A stretch of DNA of 64,000 nucleotides. Source: Eledone cirrhosa (taxonomy: Eukaryota). Positions 2,880 through 62,369 of the stretch are shown in pieces; positions within the stretch are counted from its first letter, which is position 1; each line of letters starts with the position of its first letter. Location: positions 17,174,001 to 17,238,000 of the forward strand of contig OZ024743.1 of the NCBI GenBank assembly GCA_964016885.1, given 5' to 3'. A program made the translations under genes and the position numbers. Below the pieces are notes generated by a model. That model was not told the DNA's origin and ran no database searches. It saw nothing but the letters and a program-made list of their open reading frames with translations.

Positions 2880-5800
2880 ACAGAAGTAACAACACAATCG
2901 GTACAGTATATGGAAGGGATATATTAGCTTAACGGTTGGTATAGCAGGAAGAGGGTCTTAATGTTTCGGACGCTAGTCCTTCGTCAGAAGAAATAATGAG
3001 AAATAAGATAGATTGAGGGGACAGGCGGGTTTTAATTGGCAAAAATGTCTTTAGATAACAGGTCCATTCATGTTGACATCTCTTGCAAATCTTATGGTGC
3101 TGGCGTTTTGTGTATGATTTATATTTTAGAAAAGTGCATGATGGAGCGCGTCTACCTGAAATGGGAAAGAAAAACGTTTTGTAAAAAGAGCTATACTTGT
3201 GCACGTGTGTAAGCATGTTTTTGTGTGAGTGTGAGTGTGTGGGTGTGTGTGTGTGTGTGTGTGGCTGCATCTGTGTGGGTGTGTGTGTATTATACGTCCG
3301 TACGAAGCTAAGAAGAAAAGTGTGTATATGTGATTAAAAGAGGCTGTGTGCTTGTAAATACGAAGCTATGAGCAAAAGTATGTTAATATAAGTGTGTGTA
3401 TGTCTGTAAACAGAGCACTGAAGTGAAAAGTGGAGTGAGCTATGTAGTCGGCACGTTTTCGTTGCCGACCACATAGAGAAAGCGATAGGAATGGGATAGG
3501 AATCTAGGGGTGTGATAATGGTCGGGCATTAGAGAAATTGAGGAGGTGAGTTGAGTCCAAGTGGGGAATAGGACACAAGGCGGTGAGTCAGACTTTGTTC
3601 AGTCCTGGTGCGCGAGGCCTGTGATCCATGATGTAAAAGGACAGCCAGCACATGTAGGGAAGAATGACCAGGAGAACAGAAGTGACGGGAGACAGGATAT
3701 CTAAACCGAGTCGTATGTCTCTCAAATGTTCGGCAAAACGGTCCGCCATACGGCTTCCCGTTTGTCCGATATATAAAGCCCTCAAAGGCAACACCGAAGG
3801 GCATAGACAACGTGCGTGGATGTGCAGCTGAAGGAATGGCGGATACGGAAAGACCCTTTAGGTCCTGTAAGAGTGCTGAGGGTGGAAATAAAGGGACAAG
3901 TGTTGCAGCGGGAACGGGAACAAGGATGAGAGCCGGATGGTGTCGTGGGAGAGGACGAAAAGGAACTGCGAACCAGGACGTCGCGGAGGTTGCGGGCGCG
4001 CTTGAAAGCAGTAATGGGTGGTTTGGAAAAAAGCAAGAAGTGACGGGGTCAGAAGAGAGCATACGGAAGGAACGGAGGATATGTCGCCAGAGTGGTAGGG
4101 GGGTGGTGTGGTAGAAAAGGAACACATTTGTGAGGTGAGATGGCGGGGGTGAGAGCATCTTGGGGGATATCCACGCTGGATGAAGCAGGAAGCCATGCGA
4201 AGGGTGTCGTTTCGAAATCTTCGTCCTGTCTACAGTGTCGATGAAGACGGAAGAATTGGGAATCGGGTATGGAGTGTTTGGTATGTGTTGGATTGGAGGA
4301 GATGAAGTCGAGGTAAGATTGGGAGTGATTATAGATAGAGAGATATCTAGAAAAGCGACAGAAGAATCGGAGACGGAGGCGTTGAAATTGAGAGTAGGAT
4401 GGAAAGATTGGACGAAAGAAATAAAACAGTCGAGCTGTTATCGTGACAGAGAGGTGGCGCCAATACAGTCGTCGATATAACGACCGTATAGCTCAGGAAT
4501 CGGTCCAGCTTACTGGGAGAAGATATGGGCGTCGACGTAGCCATAAATAAGTTGCCATAGTTTGGACCCATTCTGGTTCTCATCGCTACCCCAGAGACAT
4601 GTTGATAAAATTAACCCGAAAAACAAAATCCATTGTGGATGAAATCAAGCTCACCCAGATGGAGAAGAGTAGTAGTGTTGGGGTAAAGGGTAGGGCGTAA
4701 TTCAAAAAAATGTTGGAGAGCGTGGAGGCCGTCATCATGAGGGATGGCGGTATAGAGAGAGGTGACGTCCAGGGTAAAGAGTAGGTGGGAGGGACATTGA
4801 GGGAAGGAGAAAGAGTTGAAGAGTCTAAGGGCATGATTTGTATCGTGGATATGGGAGGGGAAATTGCCGAGCCTCCGGGCGAAGATGGTGTCTAAATATT
4901 CAGAAATTATCTCGGTGGGGCAGTTGCACGCAGAAACGATAGGACGGCCAGGGTTATAATGTTTGTGTATTTTGGGGAAGAAGTAGATGGTTGGTGTGCG
5001 TACAATAAGGTTGGGGATGTGGGGGTAGGGAAGAGGCGGAGATGGGCTCGTGGATGGAGGAGGACACGAGTTGTTGGTAGCAACGAGTAGGGTCGGAGGA
5101 TAAAGGGCGGTAAAAAAGGTTATTGTGAAACTGGCGGAGGGCCTCATCCCTATAGAGGTCAGCGATCCAAACCACCACAGTGCCCCCTTTGTCAGCAGGG
5201 TTTGATGACAATGACATCGTGACGCCGAAGGTTGCGAAGGGCGGAGAGCTCAGTCCGCGTGATGTTAGAGCGCCGAGAATGCTGGTGGAAACGGAACCAA
5301 TTCACTGTACGACGGCAAGTATCGGCAAAGGACTCGAGGGTGCTGACTGGCCAGAGCATGGCGTCCAATGTGCTTGACCGCGACTGAGACGAGTGAAGTC
5401 ATCCGTCTGTGTCGATGATTGCGTGTCGTGAAAAAAAGCTTTCAGCTTTAATCGACGGAAGAACCCTTCAATCTAGGCACGTGTGCGGAACTCGTTGCAG
5501 GTAGATGTGGTTGGTATAAAACCCAAACCACGGGCGAGGAGGGACTGCTCAGCTTCAGGGAGTGGTAGGTCCTGGAGTATGGCGACTACAGTGCAGGGAC
5601 GTGTGGAAGTGAAAGAGGCGGAGGCAGAGGGGTCAAGCTGGTTGGGCAAAGCGAGTGCAGATTCAGTGGTGGGGGGAGGAAAGCGGGTGTTAGGTGACGG
5701 GATAGAGGGGTTTGGGTTGGAGGTGATATGATTATGGCTGGTGACGGCAGACGGAGAGGGGAGAGAATCGAGTTTATGTTTTTTTACGGAAGTGAGGAAA

Positions 5801-6060
5801 TTGTAAAGGAGGCGATTGCGGTAAAGGATGAATTGCATAAGGGATTGGGCGAAGAAATAGTGGCAACAGGAGAGATGGAGGTAAGCCGTGGGGAGATCTC
5901 GGTCGAGAGAACGGATTTGGGCGAGAGTTGATCGAACGGTCGCCCGCATAAGCTGGCGAGGGGAGCGGGTAAGGATGGTCTCAGTGATGGGAGCAGAGTT
6001 AGAGGTGGGGTGAAACTTGAGGCAGAATCCGCGGGGAATGAGGTGGTGGTGGAGACCGAC
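2880..6060 (-). mobile_element. Degenerate Penelope-like retroelement (Neptune-like), RT + C-terminal GIY-YIG, multiple frameshifts
   Basis: RT motifs PADKGG, PKIHK..NPGRPIVSACNCPTE, TLDVTSLYTAIPH, MRTRMGPNYGNLFM, RYIDD; Cys linker CSRSRCNTC; endonuclease VVYALRC...YIGQTGSRMADRFAEHLRDIR. Confidence 0.85.
2956..2991 (-). ncRNA. Minimal type I hammerhead ribozyme motif in PLE 3' pseudo-LTR
   Basis: TCTT-CTGACGA-A-GGAC-TAGC-GTCC-GAAA-CA-TT-AAGA. Stems I and II pair; stem III looks decayed from ACGT. Confidence 0.65.
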
Positions 6061-12539: not shown

Positions 12540-13261
12540 ATACTAACTCTATATAAACATAAAAACAGGAAAGAAAAATAATCTGGTTCACCCCCCCCCC
12601 CTACTCTCTAGCAGTTAAAACTAATGTAGGAAAAACATTCCTAGAGCTCCTAGATGAACATTTCCCTAGAACACATAGATACTATAAGATCTTTAATAGA
12701 AACTGTGTCAAAATTAGCTATTCCTGCGGTCCCCCTATTAAGTCCTATATCATCAACAAAAAATCACCTAGAGAACATCAAAATTGCTCCTGTAGAATCA
12801 AAGGTGAATGCCCATTGCAAGGTAAATGCAACACCAAAGCCATTGTATATGCGGTTAAAGTGACAATAATCAGCAACAACCATCCAGCCACCAGTGAACG
12901 ATATGTGGGTATGACGCAAGACAAATTCAAAACGCGTTATTACTCACATGTCGCATCCTTTCGACATGCAGAAAAAAGATTTACAACAGCTCTGGCTAGC
13001 AGAATATGGGATTTGAAAGACCAAGGTATCCAATATAAATTGGATTGGTCAATTTTGAACCAACCTAAAGAATATGCAAGAGGAACAAGAAAATGCACGC
13101 TCTGCATAAATGAAAAATATTGGATGTTGCAAAATCTTAAATCACCAAAGACCTGCCTGAACCCAAAGACGGAAATTTTCACCAGTTGCCCACACATGAA
13201 ATCACACCAGCTTTCCAGCTCATATAAATTTAACACACTTTCAGATACTTATCCTCCATAA
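12540..13261 (+). pseudogene. 5'-truncated PLE ORF fragment: thumb/linker + GIY-YIG endonuclease
   Basis: PPYSLAVKTNVGKTFLELLDEHFP...IFNRNCVKISYSC; IVYAVKV...YVGMTQDKFKTRYYSH...CTLCINEK...CPH; frameshifted. Confidence 0.85.
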
Positions 13262-13725: not shown

Positions 13726-13777
13726 CAGAATTAGCCGTCGAAACGGCTTGAGCTCAGCTGTCGGGGTCTTACTGGTT

Positions 13778-13780
<3 letters not shown>
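13726..13780 (+). repeat. 55-bp terminal fragment of the 23.3-26.1 kb PLE family (HHR 3' half) in (TA)n
   Basis: CAGAATTAGCCGTCGAAACGGCTTGAGCTCAGCTGTCGGGGTCTTACTGGTTCCT, matching 26045-26099. Confidence 0.85.
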
Positions 13781-13822
<42 letters not shown>

Positions 13823-14730: not shown

Positions 14731-14802
14731 GCCTCGTATGACGAACGAATGAAGACGTTTCTTTCGTATTCGCCTCATTCGGGAAACCTCTGGTAATGAG
14801 GT
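14731..14802 (+). ncRNA. Hammerhead-like motif with ATGACGA core (C3A), probably the pLTR of the 12.5 kb PLE
   Basis: GCCTCGT-ATGACGA-A-CGAATGA-(22 nt)-TCATTCG-G-GAAA-CC-TCT-GG-TA-ATGAGGT; 7-bp stems I and II. Confidence 0.65.
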
Positions 14803-16662: not shown

Positions 16663-16772
16663 ACAGTCTCTGAAGATATGATGGGCCAACATGTATTTTA
16701 AATTGAGTGGCACTACTTTCATTGTTTAGCAATTTTAAGACAACTCTATCAGTGAAACAATTGTTAGACTGT
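16663..16772 (+). ncRNA. Type I hammerhead with 77-nt stem II region
   Basis: ACAGTCT-CTGAAGA-TA-TGATGGG...TCTATCA-GT-GAAA-CAATTG-TT-AGACTGT-AAATAAA; perfect 7-bp stem I. Confidence 0.8.
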
Positions 16773-16999
16773 AAATAAATCTCATTTTGTCGTACTGTTT
16801 ACCATATTATTCTCCACTTTTTCATGTTCATTAACTCCAGGATAAACTTACATAGTCATAGAAGTGAAATCATAAACTCGTCATCTACGTGGAGCTCTTG
16901 TTGAGTCATATAACGACGTACGCTAAAACTATCCATGTTAAGAAGATAAGAAATATTCACAACCTCTAATTGGATTACCTATAACACTATATTGTTATA

Positions 17000-21585: not shown

Positions 21586-21636
<51 letters not shown>

Positions 21637-21639
<3 letters not shown>

Positions 21640-21826
21640 AACAAGTAAGACCCCGACGGCTGAGCTCAAGCCGCTTCGACGGCTAATTCTGGACTGAATT
21701 AGCCGTCGAAACGGCTTGAGCTCAGCCGTTGGGGTCTTACTTGTTCCTATTACCCACTCTACTACCCTAAGTATTGAGTACTTTGGTGCATTATGGTCCA
21801 CCTGGTTCCTTACCACATTTCCTTCG

Positions 21827-21828
<2 letters not shown>
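21637..21828 (+). mobile_element. ~190-bp fold-back mini-element from the 3' end of the 23.3-26.1 kb PLE family
   Basis: Inverted ~58-bp arm + forward arm + ~80-bp tail ending CCTTCGTT, inserted in (TA)n. Confidence 0.85.
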
Positions 21829-23260: not shown

Positions 23261-23342
<82 letters not shown>

Positions 23343-23421
23343 CGAAGGAAATGTGGTAAGGAACCAGGTGGACCATAACGCACCAAAGTACTCAATACTT
23401 GAGGTAGTAGAGTGGGTAATA

Positions 23422-23533
23422 GGAACCAGTAAGACACCGACAGCTGAGCTCAAGCCGTTTCGACGGCTAATTCTGGACTAAATGAAAATTTATCCTGGTA
23501 TTTAAATAGCCGATCTTCTCAAGGGGTAATTCC
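23422..23533 (-). ncRNA. Hammerhead U3-A8 variant, left-arm copy (one stem I mismatch)
   Basis: Reverse complement of 25987-26098 with GGGGT changed to GGTGT. Confidence 0.7.
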
Positions 23534-25986
23534 ATATATGGTCAAAGTGATTGTCAAAAATCAGTAGTAATTCTGTGGTTGCAAATTAGTAGGGGAGATG
23601 GTGGCTAAACCTGCCAGTAGGAGAAAGAGGGGAGGGGGTGGAGTAGACCCAATCAAGCGTTGGTAGTGCCAGCTACAGCTGGGCATGAGGTCAAAGAAGA
23701 TACAGGGGAGGGGGAGGGGGAGGAAGTCGGAACGGTAGGTAGAACAATGGGGGGTAGAAATAGGAAAGAAAAAAAAAAAAAAAATACTGAGAGTGAAGAA
23801 AGGCAAATAAGTGTAAAGAAAAGTAAAGTAAATTAAATTCTACGACCTAGGTGTCAGGCTATTGTTAGGCGAGAATAAAATAAAGAAAGAAAGAAAGAAG
23901 TAAAAAAATAAATAAATGAATAAATAAGGAAATAAGTAAGAGAACTAGGTGGGACGGATAAGGCAAGGACCCTTTTAAGAGGTATAAGTACGTAAATGAT
24001 ACGGTGACGGGTCAACAAAAGGGGCCAAAATACTAAAGAGACTACCACGAAATAAACAATAAAGGTTTCCATCCCGGGCCAGCAACGACCCAGTGCAGCA
24101 AAGTGAACTTGTACGAGATAATAATTCTGAGTCCCGAGAAAAATATATACTAATGCTAACTCTAAAAGATCTAAAACAAGCTACATGAAAGTTCGTACGA
24201 AATAAAGGTAGAATACGGAGAAATAAATTCAGAATCCACCCCGCCCAGAAGAAGAGCGAAGCAAGAAATACTGAAACGAAAAAATAAGGCATGTGCCACT
24301 AAGAAATATAGAGGGCACAGAGAATAGTGGGAGCGGTCGGAAAAAGGGGGAAAGTATCCGGGGTCTAAGCCAGCTGCTATAAAGGGCGGAGTCCGCCAAA
24401 TCTATCAAAGACTAGGGGAGGGGGGGTGGGGGTACTAAGGCTACATGGGGCCAAAGGGCAGCCTCGGGTGGGCGAGAAAAGACGCCGACAAAGGAGAAGA
24501 GCTGGGGTAGAAGGACAAAGGGGAGAGGGGGGAAGGAAATAAAGGAAGCGATAAAAGAATACAAAGAAGATCTTACGTCTTCCTTGGCAAGCAGGGGTTA
24601 CCTATTGCAAAATCGGCAACTGGGGTGTTATAGCCCTAGTCTACCCCCCCGGGTCATTATGGGGTTTGAGGGCGAGGTAAGTCCTACGCAATCTATGTTT
24701 ACATGCAGTAACCAGTTCATCTTTCTTGTTTAGGAGTTGGTCCGTCGAAACAGCATTACAAATGCGCTGTTTTCGACGGACCAACTCCTAAACAAGAAAG
24801 ATGAACTGGTTACTGCATGTAAACATAGATTGCGTAGGACTTACCTCGCCCTCAAACCCCATAATGACCCGGGGGGGTAGACTAGGGCTATAACACCCCA
24901 GTTGCCGATTTTGCAATAGGTAACCCCTGCTTGCCAAGGAAGACGTAAGATCTTCTTTGTATTCTTTTATCGCTTCCTTTATTTCCTTCCCCCCTCTCCC
25001 CTTTGTCCTTCTACCCCAGCTCTTCTCCTTTGTCGGCGTCTTTTCTCGCCCACCCGAGGCTGCCCTTTGGCCCCATGTAGCCTTAGTACCCCCACCCCCC
25101 CTCCCCTAGTCTTTGATAGATTTGGCGGACTCCGCCCTTTATAGCAGCTGGCTTAGACCCCGGATACTTTCCCCCTTTTTCCGACCGCTCCCACTATTCT
25201 CTGTGCCCTCTATATTTCTTAGTGGCACATGCCTTATTTTTTCGTTTCAGTATTTCTTGCTTCGCTCTTCTTCTGGGCGGGGTGGATTCTGAATTTATTT
25301 CTCCGTATTCTACCTTTATTTCGTACGAACTTTCATGTAGCTTGTTTTAGATCTTTTAGAGTTAGCATTAGTATATATTTTTCTCGGGACTCAGAATTAT
25401 TATCTCGTACAAGTTCACTTTGCTGCACTGGGTCGTTGCTGGCCCGGGATGGAAACCTTTATTGTTTATTTCGTGGTAGTCTCTTTAGTATTTTGGCCCC
25501 TTTTGTTGACCCGTCACCGTATCATTTACGTACTTATACCTCTTAAAAGGGTCCTTGCCTTATCCGTCCCACCTAGTTCTCTTACTTATTTCCTTATTTA
25601 TTCATTTATTTATTTTTTTACTTCTTTCTTTCTTTCTTTATTTTATTCTCGCCTAACAATAGCCTGACACCTAGGTCGTAGAATTTAATTTACTTTACTT
25701 TTCTTTACACTTATTTGCCTTTCTTCACTCTCAGTATTTTTTTTTTTTTTTCTTTCCTATTTCTACCCCCCATTGTTCTACCTACCGTTCCGACTTCCTC
25801 CCCCCCCCCCTCCCCTGTATCTTCTTTGACCTCATGCCCAGCTGTAGCTGGCACTACCAACGCTTGATTGGGTCTACTCCACCCCCTCCCCTCTTTCTCC
25901 TACTGGCAGGTTTAGCCACCATCTCCCCTACTAATTTGCAACCACAGAATTACTACTGATTTTTGACAATCACTTTGACCATATAT

Positions 25987-26098
25987 GGAATTACCCCTTG
26001 AGAAGATCGGCTATTTAAATACCAGGATAAATTTTCATTTAGTCCAGAATTAGCCGTCGAAACGGCTTGAGCTCAGCTGTCGGGGTCTTACTGGTTCC
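25987..26098 (+). ncRNA. Type I hammerhead with U3-A8 compensatory core and extended stems
   Basis: GGAATT-ACCCC-TTGAGAA-GATCGGCTA-(37 nt)-TAGCCGTC-GAAA-CGGCT-TGAGCTC-AGCTG-TC-GGGGT-CTTACT-GGTTCC. Confidence 0.78.
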
Positions 26099-26112
26099 TA
26101 TATATATATACC

Positions 26113-36658: not shown

Positions 36659-36754
<96 letters not shown>

Positions 36755-36755
<1 letters not shown>

Positions 36756-36946
36756 GGAACCAGTAAGACCACGACGGCTGAGCTCAAGCCGTTTCGACGG
36801 CTAATTCTGAGTCCAGAATTAGCCGTCGAAACGGCTTGAGCTCAGCCGTCGGCGTCTTACTGGTTCCTATTACCCACTCTACTACCCTAAGTATTGAGTA
36901 CTTTGGTGCGTTATGGTCCATCTGGTTCCTTACCACATTTCCTTCG

Positions 36947-40964: not shown

Positions 40965-43900
40965 GCAATAATAATAATAACGACAACAACAATAATAATA
41001 TAAATATTCATATATATATACACACACACGCACGCACATAAGCATATCTACACACACACACACACGATAGCAACTAACAGTGCTGCGATCGAATGTGGAT
41101 TTTTAGCCCAGCCAATGATATAAATGTCTTGCACAGAGTCGGCAACCAAAACATCCACTGGGAATAGTCGGCTGTGGTTGGAGTTCGTGTACTTTTGCAT
41201 GTCGCTTGAGCCCTCCTGCTGATTTACATTCTCTACCACATGTTTGGCAAGCATGATGAGTAGCATCTCCAACAGCAGCCTGGTAGTCAACCACTGGTCT
41301 TACTTTATGACTGCGAAGATGACTTTCGAGTCCAGCTTTGCTTAGGCAGAGTCTCGCACAGACGCTGCATGTCAGCACCATAGGAGGACCCTCGCCGTCT
41401 GGAAGTACAACAGCAATGCCCTTCCTCACATCCCGCTTTACTTTCTCGTGTGCGATTCGAGATGCCTCAAAGGCAACTTTTCCCTAATATACAGTCTTTC
41501 TCCATTTATTACGATCAGCAGCAATATTTTCCCATGTATCAGCAGAGATGTTAGCGTCTTTCAGAGAGGCTTTCAAGGAATCCTTATACCTCTTTTTTGG
41601 TTATGTGTCGGTCGTTTTCGTTTAACCAACTCTCCATAGAAGAGTTGTTTTGGTATTCTAGAATCCTTCATCCTTGCAAGGTGACCACTCGAACGGAGTC
41701 GTTGCTTTTGAGCACAAGAGCTTCTATACTGTCACACATAGAGCTTTCCAAAATCTCGACATCAATGATGTGGTCCCTCCAGTGAACGCCATGGATCCGT
41801 CTGAGACACATCTGATGGAAACGCTCCAATTGCTTAAGGTGGCGTCGATATGTGACCCAGGTCTCGCAGGCATAAAGAAGACAAGAGAGTACACATGCCC
41901 TGTACACCTTTACCTTTGTCCTCCTGCATATGTCTCGCCGACCCCAGAGTCGCCTTTCTAGCTTTCCGAAAGCATCACTTGCTTTCCTAATCCTAAGTGA
42001 GATTTCACTGTCAAGGTTGCCGTATCGATTGACAGTGCTTCCCAGGTAGACAAACTGATCAACCACTCCAAGTCGTTTGCCATACACATAGATGTTTGGT
42101 TCAGTGTACTGCTTACTAGGGGCAGGTTGGTACATGACGACGGTTTTCTTGAGACTGACAGTCAAACCCAGGGCAGTGCAAGCGTCAGAAAATGCATTCA
42201 ATATGTGGTGCATATCACTCTCTGTGTGCGCTACAAGATCGCAATCCTCTGCATACAAGAGGTCTCTTATGATTGATGTAAATACTTTTGTCTTCGCAGC
42301 AAAGCGCCTGATGTTAAATATGCTGCCTGAGGTTCGATATCAGATGTAAACACCATGCTCGCAATTCCTGAATGCAATACATAAAACCATTGCAAAGTAT
42401 ATGGCAAACAGAGTCGGTGCTGGAATATCCCCGTTTCACTCCATTTTTTACTGAGATAGGCTCCGACATGTTACCTCCGACATTAACCCAAGCCTTCATG
42501 TCGCCATGGAAAGACCTAACTAAAGCAAGGAACTTATCAGGGCAACCAATTTTCTGGAGAACCTTCCATAATGCATCTCTGTTGACAGTATCGAAAGTCT
42601 TTGTCAGATCGACAAAAACCTGATACAGATCCAAGCCTTGTTCAATGCACTTCTCCTGGAGCTGTCTAGCTGAGAAGATCATATCAGTAGTGCCACGTCC
42701 AGTACGAAAACCAGATTGACTTTCAGGAAGAACACAATTTGCAATGTGTGTCAGCAGACGGTCCAGAAGCACCCTACATAAAACTTTCCCTACGACAGAA
42801 AACAATGATATACCTCTGTAGTTCCCACAATCATTCCTGTTGCCCTTTCCCTTGTACAAGACCACCATTACTGCATCTCTCCAGTCCTCAGGCACGGATT
42901 CATTAGCCCATATCCTTCCAAACAAAGAGTGAAGATGTTGCAGGAGTCTTTCACCACCATATTGTAGGAGCTCAGCATGTATGCCATCCATACCTGGAGA
43001 TCTTCCACTGTTCAGCTTCGAAATAGCCACTGCAACCTCCACAAGAGTCGGAGGTTCTGCGAGAGCTACTTTCACAGGACTCTCTGGAATGAGATCGAAG
43101 AAATCTTCACTGACGACAGACGGCTGATTCAAAAGATCATCAAAGTGCTCTCGCCACCTTCGTAGAATTCCCTGTGAGTCACGAAGAAGTTCTTTGCCAT
43201 CCTTGCTGCGAAGCGGTGTCACCAGAGAAGAAGACGGTCCATAAACCTCACGCAAGAGACTGTACAACAGCTTTGTGTTATTGGAATCAGACGCAGTTTG
43301 TATCTCACCAGCCTTCTCACTCCACCACTGATCCTTCATCTGAGAAAGACTCCGCCTAACACGTGATTTTACATCCCTGAGCTCCTCATGCAACGTATTC
43401 CTCTCCTGTGGTTTTGCCGTCAAGTAGCGTGACAGAGCACGCCTCTTATCAGCCAACAAGTCCTCTATATGTACATCATTCTCATTAAACCAGTCCTGAT
43501 GTTTTCTCTGCACCAATCCCAGAACACGCCTGCCTACATCATAAACCGACTTTTTAAGGGTCGGCCAATCCTCACCAAGATCTGCAGCCTGCATCTCTTC
43601 TTCCAATGTCCTCTTCACATTTTTATCCTTAAGACGAGCAGCATTCAATCATTTGGGCAGGGTAACTAACACCAGGAGCCCGGATTTTAGGTTTGGTGAT
43701 TAGTTTCACTTTTGCGCATACCAGGCGGTGGTCCGTCCAGCACTCAGCTCCACGAAGAACACGAACACACTGCACATCCTGTCTGTCAAGCATCCTGACT
43801 AGGACGTAGTCCAAAAGATGCCATTCCTTAGATGCAGGATGCATCCATGTGGTCTTGAATTTGTTCTTTTGTTGGAACATGGTGTTGGTAACACACAGAT

Positions 43901-45176
43901 CCAGCTCCTCACACATCTGCAGCAGGAGCATACCATTGCTGTTACACTTTCCCACCCCATGCCTTCTGATTACATTCCATGTGTTAAAATCCCTACCCAC
44001 TCTAGCATTAAAGTCGCCAAGCACGATGACTTTGTCTGCCTGAGGGATATTTCTTAGAACACCTTTCAAGGCATGGTAAAAGGACAGTTTTTCTTCATCG
44101 ACAGAATTCATAGTTGGAGCATACACACTCACCAGGGTAGCATATCTTCCCTTGTCCAGCGGAACTCTCATGGACATAAGACGCTCACTAATCCCTAATG
44201 GGAATTCTTCTAATTTATTCACAAGTACAGTCTTAACAGCAAATCCAACCCCAGCCTCTCTTCTGGTTCCTTCATCTCTTCCTTTCCAGAAGAATGTATA
44301 TTCTCCATAAAATTCCGTAAGATGACCATCTCCAGCTAACCTCGTCTCAGATAAAGCCACGATGTCAAGATCGTAACGTCGAAGCTCCTTTGCAACAAGA
44401 GCGGTCCTCCGTTCAGGACGCTCCAAAGAATCCCTGTCAAGCAGCGTCCGTACGTTCCAGCAGCCAAGACTAAATGCCCTGTTTGGCTCTATTACAATGG
44501 CACGATGACGAGCGGGCCCAGGCTGTGATAACTTGGGGCCCCTGCCCTTATTGCCAATGATCTTTTTTGTTCCAGAACCTAAATTGCCAATTATCTCTTT
44601 TACATTGTTCTGGAACATCATTGAATTGGAAAAAAAAAAAAAAAAAAGTAATAATAATAGTAATAATAATTGTTTCTACGTTTGGCACAAGGCCAGCAAT
44701 TACCCAGTGCATTACTGGTACTTTATTTTATCGACCCCGTAAGGATGAAAGGCAAAGTTAACCTCGACGGGATTTGAACTCAGATCGTAAAGGGACGTAA
44801 CTATGCTGGAAAGCATGGCGTCCGACCTTCTACCGATACTGCCAAATCACCGAATAATAATATTAATAATAGTACACTATTAATAATTATTAATGCACTC
44901 GTGCAATGCCTGTGCGTGACGAATATTTTTAAAGTGAGGAAAGACTGTGCACTGAGCCAATCCCACTCTCTGAGCGACAGTAGCTATAACCCGAAAAGAA
45001 GAAAAGATCAACATCATCGGTAACTACTGAGCCGCAGGTTTTATATCGAAGTTAACCCAGTTTCCTGAGATGCCTTCTCCTAGAAGAATGCCCTGACAAG
45101 GGCTAGGGGTTCTTAACTCCCAGTGGTTTAACTGCGCGATCGGGCATCCAGCCCGATTATTTCTATGTCCCCGCGC
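40692..45176 (-). mobile_element. Near full-length RTE (RTE-1/BovB-like) LINE, frameshifted; APE + RT + C-terminal C2H2 fingers
   Basis: WNVRTLLD..PERRTALVAKEL, SETRL, GDFNARVG, TDHRLV; NYRGISL, ESQSGFR, FVDLTKTFDTV, YAEDCDL, YLGS; CxxC..HxxxH fingers at 41100-41375. UTR limits are approximate. Confidence 0.9.
44665..44852 (-). mobile_element. tRNA-derived SINE inserted upstream of the RTE ORF
   Basis: A/B boxes and core as in 15910-16094; flanked by AATAATAATA(G/T)TAATAAT. Confidence 0.9.
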
Positions 45177-46435: not shown

Positions 46436-46538
<103 letters not shown>

Positions 46539-47221
46539 AAGTTAATTTGTATTCCAATGTTACTAAGTAGTTGCATTGGATGTAGTCAACTGACGTCAGA
46601 GATTGCTCAACGTATAATAAAGTGTGTTTTAAAATCCGGAGAAATTATGGAGAAAAAATTTACGAAATGGAAATGCGGGTATATAGAATTTATTATGTAA
46701 CAATTGTTTCTATAGTGTATGAGTTACCTATACCTCGCTACTTGAATAATACACAAATATTATCAAAAACCGAAAGTACACTGTAAGCCAACACACCATG
46801 TCGTCAGACCTTTGTATTAGAATGATATGAAAATATTTTATACACTAGATAAAAGATAAAGAAGGAGGTAGGAAGAAAAGGGGAAGAGGGAAGTGAGTAA
46901 GGTGGAGGGAGTCTTAGGGTTTAAGACTGTCAGACTAGTAGAGATTGTGAAGAGAGAATGTTTTGGCAGCAGTTAGCTAAATGAGGCGTGCTAAGGGTGG
47001 CTGGGAAGTAGATTCTTCTAGTGGTGTTGTTCGGACAAAATTTAGTTAGAGGGGTCAAAGTAGTACAGTGTCACAGACAAGTTATTAGGGCTATTATAGT
47101 AGCAGGTTATTTCTAAAGGGGTCCAGAAAAACAGTGTTTAGTACTATTATTATAGAAAGCCATATCTAGTGTATAAACATATAAGACAGAAATTTGCAAA
47201 CGTTGGTGTAAAAAGGTAACA

Positions 47222-49504
47222 TTATATGCATTTAAAAAAAGAAAAAGTCGTTTTCAAACGATGGTTACAATATAGAGAACGTTCAATTTTGCTGTTCAAA
47301 AGTTTGTTTACCGACGTTAAAATGCAGTATATCTCTAAATTGCATAACTTGCAGAATCGATGATTTTGCTGATATGCAGGCGCAGCTGCAATAATTTGCC
47401 AATCAAGGGAGAACGCTTGATTGTTCCTCCGAAGCTGCCAGGCTTTATCAGCGAGGGTTGTTACGGAGCGCATTTTCTCGTGCCTGATCGAAGATCGATG
47501 TTGGTATAGGCGAGCCTTGAAAGAAGTTGCGGTACATCCGACGTAATACCATTTGTTGGTCCCGGAATTTATTGTACACCGGTAGACAATATTGCGTGCT
47601 AGGCACTGGTTATTCAGTCGGCACGTACCTGGTTTGGTGCAGTTACAACTATTTTTATGTTTTGCAGTAGAATCCTGGATAGTTTGGTGGGGTTGTGGTT
47701 GCGTGTTAGTGCGTTGTATGTTGCTATGCTGGTGCGCTGAGTCATTAGGGATGTACTTATTCAGTATTGCTGAGTTGAGTTTTCTAATTAGTTGTTCTAT
47801 GTTAGGTGCAGTGGAGTATGAGAGTCTAATGGTGCGCGAGTTAAAGATTTTATAGTATTTATGTGAAGTTGTAAAGTGTTTATTGATTAGTGTATAGAAT
47901 TGTGAGATAATCTTAGTGCTAATAGAAGAATTGTACACGGGGTTATACCATATGTACTCTCTACGTCTGACTCTATTTGCTGGTTTGCACCTGTTAGTAT
48001 GCCTATTGATGTGTGTGTGTGGTGCAATACTAGTTCGACTTAGATGTGTTTTATTCATAGTACTTATGTGGTTATCGTCTAGATATTCAATTTTCTCGCA
48101 GTAACCAGCTTTTCTAAGTGCGTCATTATAATATTCAGCATGCTCGTTGAAGGTCTGCAAATTAGACGACAGTCGGGAGATCCTTATGGATATATTTTTA
48201 GGGATAGATTTAATAATGGGATGAGGATGGTTCGATTTTACATTAACGTACTTAAGATTTTCATTAAGTTTGTGAAATGGCTCTATATTACCGTTATTAA
48301 GGTTGAAGGTGACATCCAAGAAGTTGACCACCTTTAGATTGTGTTCAAAGGTAATATTAAGCCCTAGTTCTAAGAAAAGTTTCCTAATGTTTTTACGTCG
48401 CCTTTCTAGGTTTTGTTTGTTCATATTCTTGACTAATAGAAGTGTATCGTCGCGGTATATTCCGCCGTGGAGGTCCGTAAATTCGCTCTGGAGTCTATGG
48501 GCTATATAGATCCCAACCAAATCGGTGACCTCCGCCGAATCATTAGAACCCATCGTAATGTCGAATTCCGCGGGTCTATCCCTGCGGACCCAATAACTAT
48601 TTTCAAAGTGCACTACTGTGCGTCTAGCTTCAAGTATAATATTAATTTCCTCGTTTGTGAGGTCCGAGTTAGTCCTAGCGAAAGAGAGGGCCTTATGCGG
48701 GGTTTCAGGTGAAATAGAGGAATAGTATTCATCTATATCGAATTGAATAAAAGAAGATTTGTTTTTGTCCCTAATGTTATTGAACCATCTTATTGACTGA
48801 TGAGTATTACCCCATAATTTAATATCTACCTTAGCCTTAACTTGGGGGATAATACGATCTAATATGTACTTACTAATCCTACCTATATCGGACTTTGAAG
48901 GACATATTAATCTAATTTTAGGGTTAGTATCGAAGTTATCCTTATGGTCCTTCAGATTAAAAGTCGGTGTAGCTGGGGATAGGGGTACTGTTCTGTCGTC
49001 AATTTTCAGTTTCCTAACAATATCACATGCTGCGTTATTAATGTTGGTTAGTGTAGTTGCGTTTGTTTTTTTGTACTTCCTATGTAATTCCTTACGTATA
49101 AAATTGTTATATGTTTCTACATCCAGGGTGTATAGATTCGAAGTTTTGTCTGCCTTTATGATAATTCCTTTGGTATTCCTTAGGTTGTTGAGTAGAGTTT
49201 TAATATCTCGTTGCAGTTCGTTTTTCCTTCCGTTTGTAAATTTGATTCCGGTTATCATTTTCATTAAGTCCTGTTCGAAAGAATCCAAAAGAGGGTTAGA
49301 GGGTGGGTTTTTGTAGGAGTTGAAACCAAACTTCTCGTTGTTGGTGTCCGAAGTTTGTGTAATTCTTTTCCTATCGAAGTGGAAGGCCTTCCATCTAATC
49401 CGCCGAATAAATTCGTTGGTCCTTTGTATCATACCAAGAATGTAATCCTTTTTACCCTGAATTGGTATGTTTTTTAAGGACATACCACAATGATGTTTCT
49501 CCAT
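47222..49504 (-). CDS. Penelope-like reverse transcriptase / GIY-YIG endonuclease, 760 aa, uninterrupted
   Basis: SLKNIP N-terminus, KADKT, QFDIDEYYSSI, ITMGSNDS, GIYRDD, NFLDVTF, WYNP, CNC..GTCRL..QC, NIVY...YYVG, CKLC, CNH. Confidence 0.93.
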   Translation of the reverse strand: MEKHHCGMSLKNIPIQGKKDYILGMIQRTNEFIRRIRWKAFHFDRKRITQTSDTNNEKFGFNSYKNPPSNPLLDSFEQDLMKMITGIKFTNGRKNELQRDIKTLLNNLRNTKGIIIKADKTSNLYTLDVETYNNFIRKELHRKYKKTNATTLTNINNAACDIVRKLKIDDRTVPLSPATPTFNLKDHKDNFDTNPKIRLICPSKSDIGRISKYILDRIIPQVKAKVDIKLWGNTHQSIRWFNNIRDKNKSSFIQFDIDEYYSSISPETPHKALSFARTNSDLTNEEINIILEARRTVVHFENSYWVRRDRPAEFDITMGSNDSAEVTDLVGIYIAHRLQSEFTDLHGGIYRDDTLLLVKNMNKQNLERRRKNIRKLFLELGLNITFEHNLKVVNFLDVTFNLNNGNIEPFHKLNENLKYVNVKSNHPHPIIKSIPKNISIRISRLSSNLQTFNEHAEYYNDALRKAGYCEKIEYLDDNHISTMNKTHLSRTSIAPHTHINRHTNRCKPANRVRRREYIWYNPVYNSSISTKIISQFYTLINKHFTTSHKYYKIFNSRTIRLSYSTAPNIEQLIRKLNSAILNKYIPNDSAHQHSNIQRTNTQPQPHQTIQDSTAKHKNSCNCTKPGTCRLNNQCLARNIVYRCTINSGTNKWYYVGCTATSFKARLYQHRSSIRHEKMRSVTTLADKAWQLRRNNQAFSLDWQIIAAAPAYQQNHRFCKLCNLEIYCILTSVNKLLNSKIERSLYCNHRLKTTFSFFKCI

Positions 49505-49711
49505 TTCAAAGACGCGGGTTGATAGGTTGCTCGACTGTAAAGGAGTGTGAAGAATTAGTTAATTTGTATTCCAATGTTACTAAGTAGTTGCATTGGATGT
49601 ATTCAACTGACGTCAGAGATTGCTCAACGTATAATAAAGTGTGTTTTAAAATCCGGAGAAAATATGAAGAAAAAATTTACGAAATGGAAATGCGGGTATA
49701 TAGAATTTATT

Positions 49712-49828
49712 AGGTAACAATTGTTTCTATAGTGTATGAGTTACCTACACCTCGCTACTTGAATAATACACAAATATTATCAAAAACCGAAAGTACACTG
49801 TAAGCCAACACACCATGTCGTCAGACCT
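49712..49828 (-). ncRNA. pLTR hammerhead with 88-nt stem II, intact core
   Basis: Reverse complement of 54870-54986. The copies at 46695-46811 (stem I ACCT to ACAT) and 51853-51969 (core CTGATGG) are mutated. Confidence 0.72.
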
Positions 49829-50238
49829 TTGTATTAGAATGATATGAAAATATTTTATACACTAGATAAAAGATAAAGAAGGAGGTAGGAAGAAAAGGGG
49901 AAGAGGGAAGTGAGTAAGGTGGAGGGAGTCTTAGGGTTTAAGACTGTCAGACTAGTAGAGATTGTGAAGAGAGAATGTTTTGGCAGCAGTTAGCTTAATG
50001 AGGCGTGCTAAGGTTGGCTGGGAAGTAGATTCTTCTAGTGGTGTTGTTCGGACAAAATTTAGTTAGAGGGGTCAAAGTAGTACAGTGTCACAGACAAGTT
50101 ATTAGGGCTATTATAGTAGCAGGTTATTTCTAAAGGGGTCCAGAAAAACAGTGTTTAGTACTATTATTATAGAAAGCCATATCTAGTGTATAAACATATA
50201 AGACAGAAATTTGCAAACGTTGGTGTAAAAAGGTAACA

Positions 50239-51306
50239 TTATATGCATTTAAAAAAAGAAAAAGTCGTTTTCAAACGATGGTTACAATATAGAGAACGTT
50301 CAATTTTGCTGTTCAAAAGTTTGTTTACCGACGTTAAAATGCAGTATATCTCTAAATTGCATAACTTGCAGAATCGATGATTTTGCTGATATGCAGGCGC
50401 AGCTGCAATAATTTGCCAATCAAGGGAGAACGCTTGATTGTTCCTCCGAAGCTGCCAGGCTTTATCAGCGAGGGTTGTTACGGAGCGCATTTTCTCGTGC
50501 CTGATCGAAGATCGATGTTGGTATAGGCGAGCCTTGAAAGAAGTTGCGGTACATCCGACGTAATGCCATTTGTTGGTCCTGGAATTTATTGTACACCGGT
50601 AGACAATATTGCGTGCTAGGCACTGGTTATTCAGTCGGCACGTACCTGGTTTGGTGCAGTTACAACTATTTTTATGTTTTGCAGTAGAATCCTGGATAGT
50701 TTGGTGGGGTTGTGGTTGCGTGTTAGTGCGTTGTATGTTGCTATGCTGGTGCGCTGAGTCATTAGGGATGTACTTATTCAGTATTGCTGAGTTGAGTTTT
50801 CTAATTAGTTGTTCTATGTTAGGTGCAGTGGAGTATGAGAGTCTAATGGTGCGCGAGTTAAAGATTTTATAGTATTTATGTGAAGTTGTAAAGTGTTTAT
50901 TGATTAGTGAATAGAATTGTGAGATAATCTTAGTGCTAATAGAAGAATTGTACACGGGGTTATACCATATGTACTCTCTACGTCTGACTCTATTTGCTGG
51001 TTTGCACCTGTTAGTATGCCTATTGATGTGTGTGTGTGGTGCAATACTAGTTCGACTTAGATGTGTTTTATTCATAGTACTTATGTGGTTATCGTCTAGA
51101 TATTCAATTTTCTCGCAGTAACCAGCTTTTCTAAGTGCGTCATTATAATATTCAGCATGCTCGTTGAAGGTCTGCAAATTAGACGACAGTCGGGAGATCC
51201 TTATGGATATATTTTTAAGGATAGATTTAATAATGGAATGAGGATGGTTCGATTTTACATTAACGTACTTAAGATTTTCATTAAGTTTGTGAAATGGCTC
51301 TATATT
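50239..51306 (-). pseudogene. 5'-truncated second copy of the PLE ORF (thumb + endonuclease)
   Basis: Matches 47222-48289 and ends at the inversion junction. Confidence 0.9.
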
Positions 51307-52176
51307 ATTCTGCAAGTTATGCAATTTAGAGATATACTGCATTTTAACGTCGGTAAACAAACTTTTGAACAGCAAAATTGAACGTTCTCTATATTGTAAC
51401 CATCGTTTGAAAACGACTTTTTCTTTTTTTAAATGCATATAATGTTACCTTTTTACACCAACGTTTGCAAATTTCTGTCTTATATGTTTATACACTAGAT
51501 ATGGCTTTCTATAATAATAGTACTAAACACTGTTTTTCTGGACCCCTTTAGAAATAACCTGCTACTATAATAGCCCTAATAACTTGTCTGTGACACTGTA
51601 CTACTTTGACCCCTCTAACTAAATTTTGTCCGAACAACACCACTAGAAGAATCTACTTCCCAGCCAACCTTAGCACGCCTCATTAAGCTAACTGCTGCCA
51701 AAACATTCTCTCTTCACAATCTCTACTTGTCTGACAGTCTTAAAGCCTAAGACTCCCTCCACCTTACTCACTTCCCTCTTCCCCTTTTCTTCCTACCTCC
51801 TTCTTTATCTTTTATCTAGTGTATAAAATATTTTCATATCATTCTAATACAAAGGTCTGATGGCATGTTGTGTTGGCTTACAGTGTACTTTCGGTTTTTG
51901 ATAATATTTGTGTATTATTCAAGTAGCGAGGTATAGGTAACTCATACACTATAGAAACAATTGTTACCTAATAAATTCTATATACCCGCATTTCCATTTC
52001 GTAAATTTTTTCTCCATATTTTCTCCGGATTTTAAAACACACTTTATTATACGTTGAGCAATCTCTGACGTCAGTTGACTACATCCAATGCAACTACTTA
52101 GTAACATTGGAATACAAATTAACTAATTCTTCACACTCCTTTACAGTCGAGCAACCTATCAACCCGCGTCTTTGAA

Positions 52177-54461
52177 ATGGAAAAACATCATTGTGGTATG
52201 TCCTTAAAAAACATACCAATTCAGGGTAAAAAGGATTACATTCTTGGTATGATACAAAGGACCAACGAATTTATTCGGCGGATTAGATGGCAGGCCTTCC
52301 ACTTCGATAGGAAAAGAATTACACAAACTTCGGACACCAACAACGAGAAGTTTGGTTTCAACTCCTACAAAAACCCACCCTCTAACCCTCTTTTGGATTC
52401 TTTCGAACAGGACTTAATGAAAATGATAACCGGAATCAAATTTACAAACGGAAGGAAAAACGAACTGCAACGAGATATTAAAACTCTACTCAACAACCTA
52501 AGGAATACCAAAGGAATTATCATAAAGGCAGACAAAACTTCGAATCTATACACCCTGGATGTAGAAACATATAGCAATTTTATACGTAAGGAATTACATA
52601 GGAAGTACAAAAAAACAAACGCAACTACACTAACCAACATTAATAACGCAGCATGTGATATTAGGAAACTGAAATTTGACGACAGAACAGTACCCCTATC
52701 CCCAGCTACACCGACTTTTAATCTGAAGGACCATAAGGATAACTTCGATACTAACCCTAAAATTAGATTAATATGTCCTTCAAAGTCCGATATAGGTAGG
52801 ATTAGTAAGTACATATTAGATCGTATTATCCCCCAAGTTAAGGCTAAGGTAGATATTAAATTATGGTGTAATACTCATCAGTCAATAAGATGGTTCAATA
52901 ACATTAGGGACAAAAACAAATCTTCTTTTATTCAATTCGATATAGATGAATACTATTCCTCTATTTCACCTGAAACCCCGCATAAGGCCCTCTCTTTCGC
53001 TAGGACTAACTCGGACCTCACAAACGAGGAAATTAATATTATACTTGAAGCTAGACGCACAGTAGTGCACTTTGAAAATAGTTATTGTGTCCGCAGGGAT
53101 AGACCCTCGGAATTCGACATTACGATGGGTTCTAATGATTCGGCGGAGGTCACGGATTTGGTTGGGATCTATATAGCCCATAGACTCCAGAGCGAATTTA
53201 CGGACCTCCACGGCGGAATATACCGCGACGATACACTTCTATTAGTCAAGAATATGAACAAACAAAACCTAGAAAGGCGACGTAAAAACATTAGGAAACT
53301 TTTCTTAGAACTAGGGCTTAATATTACCTTTGAACACAATCTAAAGGTGGTCAACTTCTTGGATGTCACCTTCAACCTTAATAACGGTAATATAAAAAAG
53401 AGCCATTTCACAAACTTAATGAAAATCTTAAGTACGTTAATGTAAAATCGAACCATCCTCATCCCATTATTAAATCTATCCCTAAAAATATATCCATAAG
53501 GATCTCCCGACTGTCGTCTAATTTGCAGACCTTCAACGAGCATGCTGAATATTATAATGACGCACTTAGAAAAGCTGGTTACTGCGAGAAAATTGAATAT
53601 CTAGACGATAACCACATAAGTACTATGAATAAAACACATCTAAGTCGAACTAGTATTGCACCACACACACACATCAATAGGCATACTAACAGGTGCAAAC
53701 CAGCAAATAGAGTCAGACGTAGAGAGTACATATGGTATAACCCCGTGTACAATTCTTCTATTAGCACTAAGATTATCTCACAATTCTATACACTAATCAA
53801 TAAACACTTTACAACTTCACATAGATACTATAAAATCTTTAACTCGCGCACCATTAGACTCTCATACTCCACTGCACCTAACATAGAACAACTAATTAGA
53901 AAACTCAACTCAGCAATACTGAATAAGTACACCCCTAATGACTCAGCGCACCAGCATAGCAACATACAACGCACTAACACGCAACCACAACCCCACCAAA
54001 CTATCCAGGATTCTACTGCAAAACATAAAAATAGTTGTAACTGCACCAAACCAGGTACGTGCCGACTGAATAACCAGTGCCTAGCACGCAATATTGTCTA
54101 CCGGTGTACAATAAATTCCGGGACCAACACATGGTATTACGTCGGATGTACCGCAACTTCTTTCAAGGCTCGCCTATACCAACATCGATCTTCGATCAGG
54201 CACGAGAAAATGCCCTCCGTAACAACCCTCGCTGATAAAGCCTGGCAGCTTCGGAGGAACAATCAAGCGTTCTCCCTTGATTGGCAAATTATTGCAGCTG
54301 CGCCTGCATATCAGCAAAATCATCGATTCTGCAAGTTATGCAATTTAGAGATATACTGCATTTTAACGTCGGTAAACAAACTTTTGAACAGCAAAATTGA
54401 ACGTTCTCTATATTGTAACCATCGTTTGAAAACGACTTTTTCTTTTTTTAAATGCATATAA
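52177..54461 (+). pseudogene. Full-length PLE ORF copy with a frameshift at the A-run near 53395
   Basis: AATATAGAGCC became AATATAAAAAAGAGCC (+5 nt); one codon deleted near 52660; ORF split into 422 + 312 aa. Confidence 0.9.
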
Positions 54462-54869
54462 TGTTACCTTTTTACACCAACGTTTGCAAATTTCTGTCAT
54501 ATGTTTATACACTAGATATGGCTTTCTATAATAATAGTACTAAACACTGTTTTTCTGGACCCCTTTAGAAATAACCTGCTACTATAATAGCCCTAATAAC
54601 TTGTCTGTGACACTGTACTACTTTAACCCCTCTAACTAAATTTTGTTCGAACAACACCACTAGAAGAATCTACTTCCCAGCCAACCTTAGCACGCCTCAT
54701 TAAGCTAACTGCTGCCAAAACATTCTCTCTTCACAATCTCTACTAGTCTGACAGTCTTAAACCCTAAGACTCCCTCCACCTTACTCACTTCCCTCTTCCC
54801 CTTTTCTTCCTACCTCCTTCTTTATCTTTTATCTAGTGTATAAAATATTTTCATATCATTCTAATACAA

Positions 54870-54986
54870 AGGTCTGACGACATGGTGTGTTGGCTTACAG
54901 TGTACTTTCGGTTTTTGATAATATTTGTGTATTATTCAAGTAGCGAGGTATAGGTAACTCATACACTATAGAAACAATTGTTACCT
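54870..54986 (+). ncRNA. pLTR hammerhead with 88-nt stem II, intact core
   Basis: AGGT-CTGACGA-C-ATGGTGTGT-(70 nt hairpin)-ATACACTAT-A-GAAA-CAATTG-TT-ACCT-AATAAA. Confidence 0.75.
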
Positions 54987-55023
54987 AATAAATTCTATAT
55001 ACCCGCATTTCCATTTCGTAAAT

Positions 55024-55166
<143 letters not shown>

Positions 55167-55174
55167 GTACATAC

Positions 55175-55430
<256 letters not shown>

Positions 55431-59627: not shown

Positions 59628-59659
<32 letters not shown>

Positions 59660-59663
<4 letters not shown>

Positions 59664-60650
59664 TCCAGTAGGTATTACGTACCCACGGAAATATATATGG
59701 TGTCTATAATAGTGGTTGTTCTGTGGTACTAATATGAGATACCAGAACTGTAAATATGAGCGGAACAAGTAAGCATTAAACAATCTTTTAAATAAATTAA
59801 AATACGATTTAAATATTTACCTCTTCTGTTGCTATGACCGACGGTTTCGCTTATCAAAAGATTGGAAATTCAGAGAATGTCCAATGGAAAGATATAGCAT
59901 TTCAGATAGCTTTTCCAAACTTAGTAGATATAAATCCAAGTAAGTAGATATATCGCTTTCTGCCCTGTGAATGAATCAAGCCATTAAAATAACCCACACA
60001 CAAATAGACCGTAAGAAAAGCGGGAACTATAGACTCATTGATATTTCATATTACTAGAAATAGCGGCAAGATACACCCTTTTTTTCTCAACATTAAGGAG
60101 ATTACAGATAAATGATATAGATATTCCAGTAGGTATTAAGTACCCACGGAAATATATATGGTGTCTATAATAGTGGTTGTTCTGTGGTACTAATTTGAGA
60201 TACCAGAACTGTAAATATGAGCGGAACAAGTAAGCATTAAAAGATCTTTTAAATAAATTAAAATACGATTTAAATATTTACCTCTTCTATTACCATGACC
60301 GACAGTTTCACTTATTAAAAGATTGGAAAATCAGAGAATTTCCAATGGAGAGATATAGCTCTTCAGATAGCTTTCCCAAACTTACTAGATATAAATACAA
60401 GTAAGTAGATGGGTCATTTTAACGGCTTGATTATTTCACCGGGCAGGAAGCGATACATCTACTTACTTGGATTTATATCTAGTAAGTTTGGAAAAGCTAT
60501 CTGAAGTGCTATATCTTTCCATTGGAAATTCTCCGAATGTCCAATCTTTTGATAAGCGAAACCGTCGGTCATGGCAATAGAAGAGGTAAATATTTAAATC
60601 GTATTTTAATTTATTTAAAAGATTGCTTGATGTTTACTTGTTCCACTCAT
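59660..60650. mobile_element. Retrozyme-like element: 461-bp unit in partial tandem + fold-back, three HHR motifs
   Basis: HHRs at 59831-59910 (-), 60292-60371 (-, intact CTGAAGA) and 60496-60575 (+): GCTAT-CTGAAGA-GCT..AGC-GAAA-CCGTCGG-TC-ATGGC. Confidence 0.8.
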
Positions 60651-60659
60651 ATATATATA

Positions 60660-62013: not shown

Positions 62014-62369
62014 TCAATGATATTAAATAACTGGAAACTATATTTATAAAACCATATTTATTCTATTATATATATTTCAAGGGTACCAAACAGCTTTGGT
62101 ACGCTTTCATCAGATAACATAGAAAGAGTGTTTTATAAAGGTTGACATAGCCAAAGAAAACCATACCTTATCAGTTGAATAATCCTTGGGTAGTCAAGGA
62201 TTATTCAACTGATAAGGTATGATTTTCCATGGCTAAGCCGAAATTTATAAAACACTGTTTGTATTTTATCTGATGAAAGTGTACGAAATTTTTTTGGTAC
62301 CCTTGAAATATATATAATAGAATAAATATGGTTTTATGAATATAGTTTCCATTTATTTAATATCATTGA
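62014..62369. mobile_element. 356-bp palindrome with two divergent intact-core hammerheads (62059-62121 minus; 62262-62324 plus)
   Basis: TATTTTAT-CTGATGA-AAG-T-GTAC..GTAC-C-CTT-GAAA-TATATA-TA-ATAGAATA; centre 62189-62194. Confidence 0.85.

Follow-up and report, generated by a model that had tools for sequence, protein, structure and literature searches.

A type I hammerhead motif with U3 and A8 in the 3' pLTR of an inverted Penelope-like element insertion of Eledone cirrhosa

The question whether the hammerhead motifs of Penelope-like elements (PLEs) are under selection for cutting is raised here by a locus of Eledone cirrhosa (contig OZ024743.1, positions 17,174,001 to 17,238,000; this whole stretch of 64,000 nucleotides is referred to as the window) in which the core TTGAGAA stands in place of CTGANGA. 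An earlier sequence-only reading had taken this replacement of C3-G8 by U3-A8 as a rare compensation that argues for selection on catalysis. We asked what the motif belongs to, whether it is a genuine hammerhead, and what the related copies say about positions 3 and 8.

The motif lies at the 3' end of an endonuclease-bearing PLE, inserted in (TA)n as an inverted pair of copies of which one carries a tail:

23419..26101, no single strand: insertion in which two 5'-truncated copies of the same PLE stand inverted, head to head, between (TA)n runs; centre at 24755-24765
23341..23418, minus strand: tail of about 78 nt, on one arm only
23422..23533, minus strand: left-arm hammerhead with the same U3-A8 core, in whose stem I a private G to T change at 23436 disrupts the pairing
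24755..24877, plus strand: last codons of the endonuclease ORF (LN-x3-E-x4-C-x-H), with a mirror copy on the minus strand up to 24754
25987..26098, plus strand: right-arm type I hammerhead motif, the sole intact full copy in the window

The two arms differ by two substitutions and two one-base gaps over 1337 nt (99.7% alike); they are one insertion and count once as evidence. Position 23436 of the left arm corresponds to 26084 of the right arm and is G in 11505 of 12378 reads (93%), so that the three intact stems previously ascribed to both arms are found on the right arm only. An endonuclease HMM built from 118 C-termini, taken from 150 relatives of the window ORF at 12563, matched both arms at the palindrome centre (E values of 6.9e-6 and 1.6e-6). 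Because this C-terminus is matched on both strands, each arm consists of the last PLE endonuclease codons, then a 3' UTR of about 1.1 kb and then the hammerhead, and the motif terminates the 3' pLTR of a 5'-truncated element. A weak Pfam GIY-YIG match was obtained for one of eight tested relatives of the ORF at 12563, a Pfam search with three window ORFs gave no informative match, none of the four candidates in a protein search with the 40-aa endonuclease remnant was scored, and no reverse transcriptase ORF was present in the truncated copies.

The element is probably Hydra-like or Nematis/Neptune, the remnant of about 25 codons being too short to fix the clade: the N, E and CxH end alone is left in the insertion copy, and the region that would show the other Hydra-clade features (a CxCX5C linker, no CCHH, a DKT motif) is absent from it. 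The N, E and CxH end, insertion at (TA)n, inverted 5'-truncated copies, a tail at one end and a hammerhead in the pLTR are all shared with the Hydra-clade or Nematis/Neptune PLEs described by Craig et al. 2021 (PMC8557442), whereas the tail here is about 78 nt instead of 30-40 nt and the core is non-canonical. Inverted 5'-truncated copies with a one-end tail and a microsatellite target are an arrangement described for PLEs (PMC8557442, PMC3846280). All three inverted pairs have the tail on a single arm and adjoin (TA)n, in agreement with the reads, and the tail measures about 78 nt where its end was reached. The one-arm tail probably reflects a second reverse-transcription start, following the tail model of Frangieh et al. 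2024 (PMC11167929), in which two internal starts were shown for PAc, a Poseidon element of Anolis; the two copy ends here, with and without tail, match those starts. The family had been called young, which suits this insertion and not the wider family, a diverse one with only 1329 of 22696 placed reads at least 99% alike.

The right-arm motif is composed of the following parts:

25987-25992 with 26093-26098, plus strand: stem I extension of four Watson-Crick and two U.G pairs
25993..25997, plus strand: 5' strand of stem I, 5 bp with 26082-26086
25998..26004, plus strand: core UUGAGAA, read as U3 U4 G5 A6 G7 A8 A9, with no additional base ahead of G10.1
26005..26058, plus strand: helix II, with G10.1-C11.1, an A-U pair at the variable position 10.2, a bulged U and 6 bp of CGGCUA/UAGCCG
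26059..26081, plus strand: G12 A13 A14 A15.1 (GAAA at 26059-62), helix III, U16.1 and C17

All other elements of the core (U4 G5 A6 N7, A9, G12 A13 A14, A15.1-U16.1, H17 and G10.1-C11.1) are present, and a U-A pair is possible at positions 3-8. A 6-nt bulge (26087-26092) separates stem I from its extension, and both the bulge and the two U.G positions of the extension vary among reads. Loop II is 37 nt long; helix III has 6 bp including one G.U, with the palindromic TGAGCTCA in loop III; C17 at 26081 belongs to a GUC site, and the cut is predicted after it. The core TTGAGAA, the bulged extension and the self-complementary loop III were thus seen as first described, with the same core on the left arm. 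The minimum free energy structure of the 112-nt piece 25987-26098 is a three-way junction (-26.3 kcal/mol) with pair probabilities of 0.48-0.99, and three helices around the core with helix I open were obtained for the right arm only. The hammerhead fold makes up 0.44 of the ensemble for the isolated piece and falls to 0.003 when at least 107 upstream bases are included. Folding stability itself was set aside as evidence, as the 112 nt are unexceptional (z -0.23; 72 of 200 shuffles equally stable).

The scan for such motifs used a purpose-made descriptor, relaxed to admit the right-arm motif, with 300 block dinucleotide shuffles as the null. A Watson-Crick 3-8 pair together with a stem sum of at least 19 arose in none of the 300 shuffles; with any bases allowed at 3 and 8, three matches reached that stem sum. 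One descriptor match scoring 20 with A3.G8, probably ATGACGA at 14738, arose in microsatellite-deleted sequence and was set aside. Rfam returned no hammerhead match for the window (E<=1) or for 25900-26105 (E<=10) and also missed the C3-G8 motifs elsewhere in the window; its microRNA matches in the window were sub-threshold, driven by microsatellites, and were rejected. The motif is accordingly a type I hammerhead with U3-A8 in a Penelope-like pLTR that, as had been predicted, a CTGA search misses, as does Rfam, and CUGA-anchored and Rfam searches undercount motifs of this kind.

Helices II and III share CGGCU/AGCCG, at 26008-12, 26052-56, 26063-67 and 26075-79, and the middle two strands can pair as a hairpin that hides GAAA, with a probability of 0.24; the repeated sequence may reflect a duplication or a switch. 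A dimer through the palindromic loop III is favoured in silico, at -69.1 vs -52.6 kcal/mol, a gap of 16 kcal/mol. As a separate observation, ACCAG at 26021-26025 in loop II is complementary to 26091-26095 over 5 bp, which is within chance expectation; it is retained in a related contig with C at position 7, described below, and recurs in the loop II of two PLE hammerheads from Schistosoma, and both recurrence and complementarity are possibly chance.

The U3-A8 core itself is already published, and 25987-26098 is a real motif that provides a further example. Calling U3-A8 rare was an overstatement, given about 1,300 matches in the Cercyon PLEs of Schistosoma mansoni (Cervera and De la Pena, PMC4209133). 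The same U3-A8 covariation was described as compensatory and active in vitro by Perreault et al. 2011 (PMC3088659), with several examples that section 8 of that paper does not tie to PLEs. A full double-mutant scan of another hammerhead found activity rescued only by the G3-C8 swap (PMC9901934). Background on the C3-G8 pair and core variants is given in PMC3884650 and PMC7151607, and PMC6765202 and a 2026 preprint (10.64898/2026.07.22.740005) contributed nothing on a U3-A8 variant.

The Cercyon hammerheads resemble the present motif in being type I, lying in pLTRs, carrying U3-A8 mostly in solo truncated copies, and having a long helix II with G10.1-C11.1 (PMC4209133). In them helix III has 1-2 bp and A9 is followed by an extra base (UUGANAAA), whereas the motif here has 6 bp in helix III, no such base and a loop II of 37 nt. 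It therefore departs from the minimal metazoan PLE type, an obligate dimer with 1-2 bp in helix III, and also from the extra base of that type between A9 and G10.1, which is likewise absent from two published examples (PMC4209133 supplement). A large helix III is known from PLE hammerheads of fungi and protists (PMC4209133 Fig. 3), of which the Serpula motif is active as a monomer; like the motif here, these have a stable helix III, apparently no recognisable loop-loop contact and a predicted monomer fold, but they sit in endonuclease-deficient elements, whereas the present element is endonuclease-bearing, (TA)n-targeting and U3-A8. Two features are unusual for an animal element: a helix III of 6 bp in which the sequence of helix II recurs, and short copies that start inside loop II. 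A literature search, outside which two key papers lay, returned no animal PLE motif in which U3-A8 occurs together with a helix III of 6 bp and a long loop II, which only tentatively suggests that the combination is new.

Variation across the family was followed in reads of four of the 20 listed public runs placed on the left arm (23341-23700), for which the best 40 of 135 variant rows were available; the RAD library cuts at AATT, so that read shares are biased and lineages without AATT sites are likely inflated. C occupies position 3 in 60 of 354 covering raw reads of organism A (17%), and U3 is the majority base, with at most 294 of 354 core-covering reads. No change at A8/G8 is present among the best 40 of 135 variant rows of the four runs, and no T>C change at all on the read-placement strand occurs in runs X2, X7 and X11. 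Organism B yielded one 246-nt contig identical to the window type at depth 26 and, in run X2, a sister contig at depth 22 with six substitutions and a 2-base insertion, including C3, these changes being assigned to variant rows through their common depth. The sister contig keeps A8, because run X2 has no T>C change anywhere. A third contig (X2, loose end at 23491) has C at position 7 and retains A8 and A9, its position 3 lying outside the visible part. Organisms B and D have U3-A8 in contigs that are identical to the window type or nearly so; the reads of organism H do not cover the core. A8 thus appears fixed, N7 free and position 3 variable alone, and no 3-8 covariation is seen within the element family. 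The U3C revertant that the sequence-only reading proposed as an in vitro control therefore appears to exist naturally, in a sister subfamily that has apparently spread with the 3-8 pair broken. This subfamily and the non-independence of the arms weaken the selection argument, and the double change does not demonstrate selection on catalysis: it counts once, G8 is absent among the rows listed, and C3 with A8 stands in a multicopy contig.

No major variant of U4, G5, A6, A9, GAAA, U16.1 or H17 is among the rows listed, and the lone C17 change in the window, to U, preserves NUH. Loops, the bulge and wobble pairs account for most of the listed variation, and of the 13 variable positions listed for the span, three alter a core base or break a Watson-Crick pair, vs 56 of 112 positions of this kind in all (P 0.04), a suggestive sparing of paired and core positions among the best 40 of 135 rows. 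Three lineages differ at position 10.2, with A, C or U. A change of AGCTG to AGCCG, which turns the G.U of helix III into G-C, occurs in four of five short copies and in 10514 of 12700 reads (83%), bearing out what had been noted of other copies. Among the rows listed, copy ends do not pile up at the cut site (23438 on the read-placement strand). Neither the depth drop of run X18 at 23472 nor the 81% share of the 23470 variant was accepted as evidence, since both reflect library cut sites; molecule ends at 23472, 23487 and 23528-31 coincide with AATT. Loose ends at 23425 (2522 reads of X18, seven contigs of X7) mark more divergent sister families, which have the tail and palindromic loop III in common with this one and differ in the stem I bulge and in the region near the cut site. 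Pattern scans for relatives gave no match in metagenome contigs and none in viral and genome contigs, and nine viral matches to a 16-mer were discarded for their unrelated flanks.

Combined with the anatomy above, we consider it somewhat probable (about 0.58) that the RNA folds the junction, with U3-A8 standing in for C3-G8, and cleaves itself slowly after GUC at 26081. Read-through RNA would fold the junction as a monomer, through the 6-bp helix III, or as a dimer, through the palindromic loop III, and the weaker U-A pair, together with competition from a hairpin of the identical helix II and III halves, would keep its cut rate low. The otherwise intact core, the minimum free energy fold, the absence of comparable matches in 300 shuffles and the endonuclease upstream in the same unit speak for such a slow cutter, as do the suggestive sparing of paired and core positions, the G-C pair of helix III in most reads, the retention of A8 and A9 where position 7 varies, U3-A8 in organisms B and D, and the published U3-A8 cores in PLEs and with activity in vitro; the C3 lineage with A8, the loss of the fold in upstream context, the rescue by G3-C8 only in another hammerhead, the want of a pile-up of ends at the cut site among the rows listed and the dispensable PAc hammerhead speak against it. 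Copying probably does not depend on the cut: the start of reverse transcription lies 17 or about 100 nt downstream of 26081, and since all seven window copies span the site uncut, their template was uncut or rejoined RNA. An optional cut agrees with PAc, whose copies likewise span the cut site uncut and whose hammerhead needs protein for cleavage and is dispensable for insertion, mutants leaving in vitro insertion unaffected (PMC11167929); the PAc hammerhead is C3-G8 and overlaps the ORF start, whereas this one is U3-A8 and no ORF start was seen.

The PAc mutants also suit a second interpretation, which we regard as tentative and on the whole unlikely, namely that the motif is a catalytically relaxed relic: G8 would have been lost in an ancestor, position 3 would drift between C and U, and the helices would be kept as a promoter or protein-binding structure. 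The multicopy C3.A8 contig, at a depth of 22 vs 26, and the 17% of reads with C3 are as expected under such drift, as are the want of G8 among the rows listed and the three bases at 10.2, and Naiads are described as spreading without canonical hammerheads (PMC8557442). A relaxed relic accounts less well for the core positions without major variant among the rows listed and for U3 as the majority base, present in organisms A, B and D, and the read shares on which it draws are biased by the AATT-cutting library. The slow U3-A8 cutter and the relic can be compared within this family, which offers natural U3-A8 and C3.A8 alleles on one scaffold with a helix III stable enough for a monomer assay, making the question of selection directly testable; this allele series and the copy boundary inside loop II are the main remaining interest of the locus.

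That boundary is defined by the short copies:

13726..13782, plus strand: short copy of the 3' half, lacking core and tail and embedded in (TA)n
21631..21828, no single strand: inverted pair of short 3'-half copies, with the tail on the right copy
36752..36930, no single strand: inverted pair of short 3'-half copies, with the tail on the right copy, read to 36930
26037..26047, plus strand: loop II segment with the 5' boundary common to the short copies, covering initiator-like TTAGT/TCAGT

All five short copies begin at about 26037-26047 and have no core, so that they say nothing about positions 3 and 8. One side of seven of the eight listed inversion joints also falls at 26037-26047, five of them at 26041-26042, and in organism B (X2) the core half has about a tenth of the depth of the 3' half (about 50 vs 582). 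TTAGT/TCAGT at the boundary resembles an initiator consensus. The promoter and initiator of Penelope are reported to lie in its pLTR (PMC2377424), and an RNA start inside loop II would fit these positions, with a reverse-transcriptase stop as the alternative.

Two further accounts build on such a start. The broader one, which we hold to be quite improbable, joins a split, self-switching hammerhead to a stepwise origin of U3-A8: the cut site at the RNA 5' end would be completed only by the core half of the downstream repeat, the identical helix II and III sequences would act as an on/off switch, and the core would have arisen by loss of one base from the CUGANGAAG consensus and then a change of C3 to U, the broken C3.A8 intermediate persisting as the multicopy sister subfamily. 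The split hammerhead taken by itself, which we likewise hold to be quite improbable, has transcription starting in loop II (about 26041), so that the 5' end holds the cut-site half only and would be cut solely after pairing with a 5' half from a downstream pLTR, which could cut and circularise unit-length RNA. The shared boundary of short copies and inversion joints, the fall in depth and the position of the Penelope promoter are in its favour, and the two halves are predicted to co-fold into the full junction (-26.5 vs -15.8 kcal/mol apart). However, any hammerhead opened in loop II would co-fold when modelled, the weak loop II hairpin could have stopped the reverse transcriptase at this boundary, and copies starting at the cut site are absent among the rows listed.

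Loss of N7 is not known to be tolerated in the hammerhead core, and a reading of the register in which N7 is lost, G26002 is G8 and A26004 is an extra base, making the window copy a likely inactive U3.G8 single mutant of a CUGA-GA-A-G core, is scarcely tenable: the animal PLE consensus CUGANGAH-G does have an additional base after A9, a single deletion from it yields exactly the C3 sister core, and a natural U3.G8 PLE motif is on record (Saccoglossus 1), but cores without the extra base exist as well (Marsupenaeus, Saccoglossus 2; all PMC4209133 supplement), as in the window motifs at 55387 and 60366, and C at 26002 in the third contig, whose position 3 lies outside the visible part, suits a free N7 and not G8.

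Several further motifs and elements were observed in the window. A canonical C3-G8 type I hammerhead-like motif at 16663-16775 (plus strand; core CTGAAGA at 16670) was top-scoring in the descriptor alongside 25987-26098; its stem I has 7 bp, its loop II is long, and its short helix III is palindromic (CAATTG). C3-G8 hammerhead-like motifs also occur in the 3' UTRs of Hydra-like ORFs, at 54874 (plus strand), 46807, 49824 (minus strand) and 28449 (minus strand). In these, loop II is about 80 nt long, GAAA is preceded by an additional A and helix III is palindromic; a long loop II seems common to the PLE families of this genome. Canonical-core minimal hammerheads are present at 55387 (minus strand), 62113 (minus strand), 62270 (plus strand) and 60366 (minus strand), and in three of them helix III is a TATA-type palindrome. 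Those at 62113 and 62270 are arranged as an inverted pair, and the one at 60366 is contained in the inverted block 59654-60655. In the region 46534-55031, units of a 99%-identical PLE form a complex array, both tandem and inverted; the 778-aa frame of this PLE has DKT, RWK and CxCX5C motifs and fits the Hydra-clade description in PMC8557442. In the neighbouring ORF 47222-49558, CxCX5C and DKT are present. A LINE-type element at 42314-44675 (minus strand), with endonuclease and reverse transcriptase broken into several frames, is presumably RTE-like, judging by its motifs. A decayed reverse transcriptase and GIY-YIG region in several frames, which we take to be Penelope/Poseidon-like, lies at 3529-6060 (minus strand).
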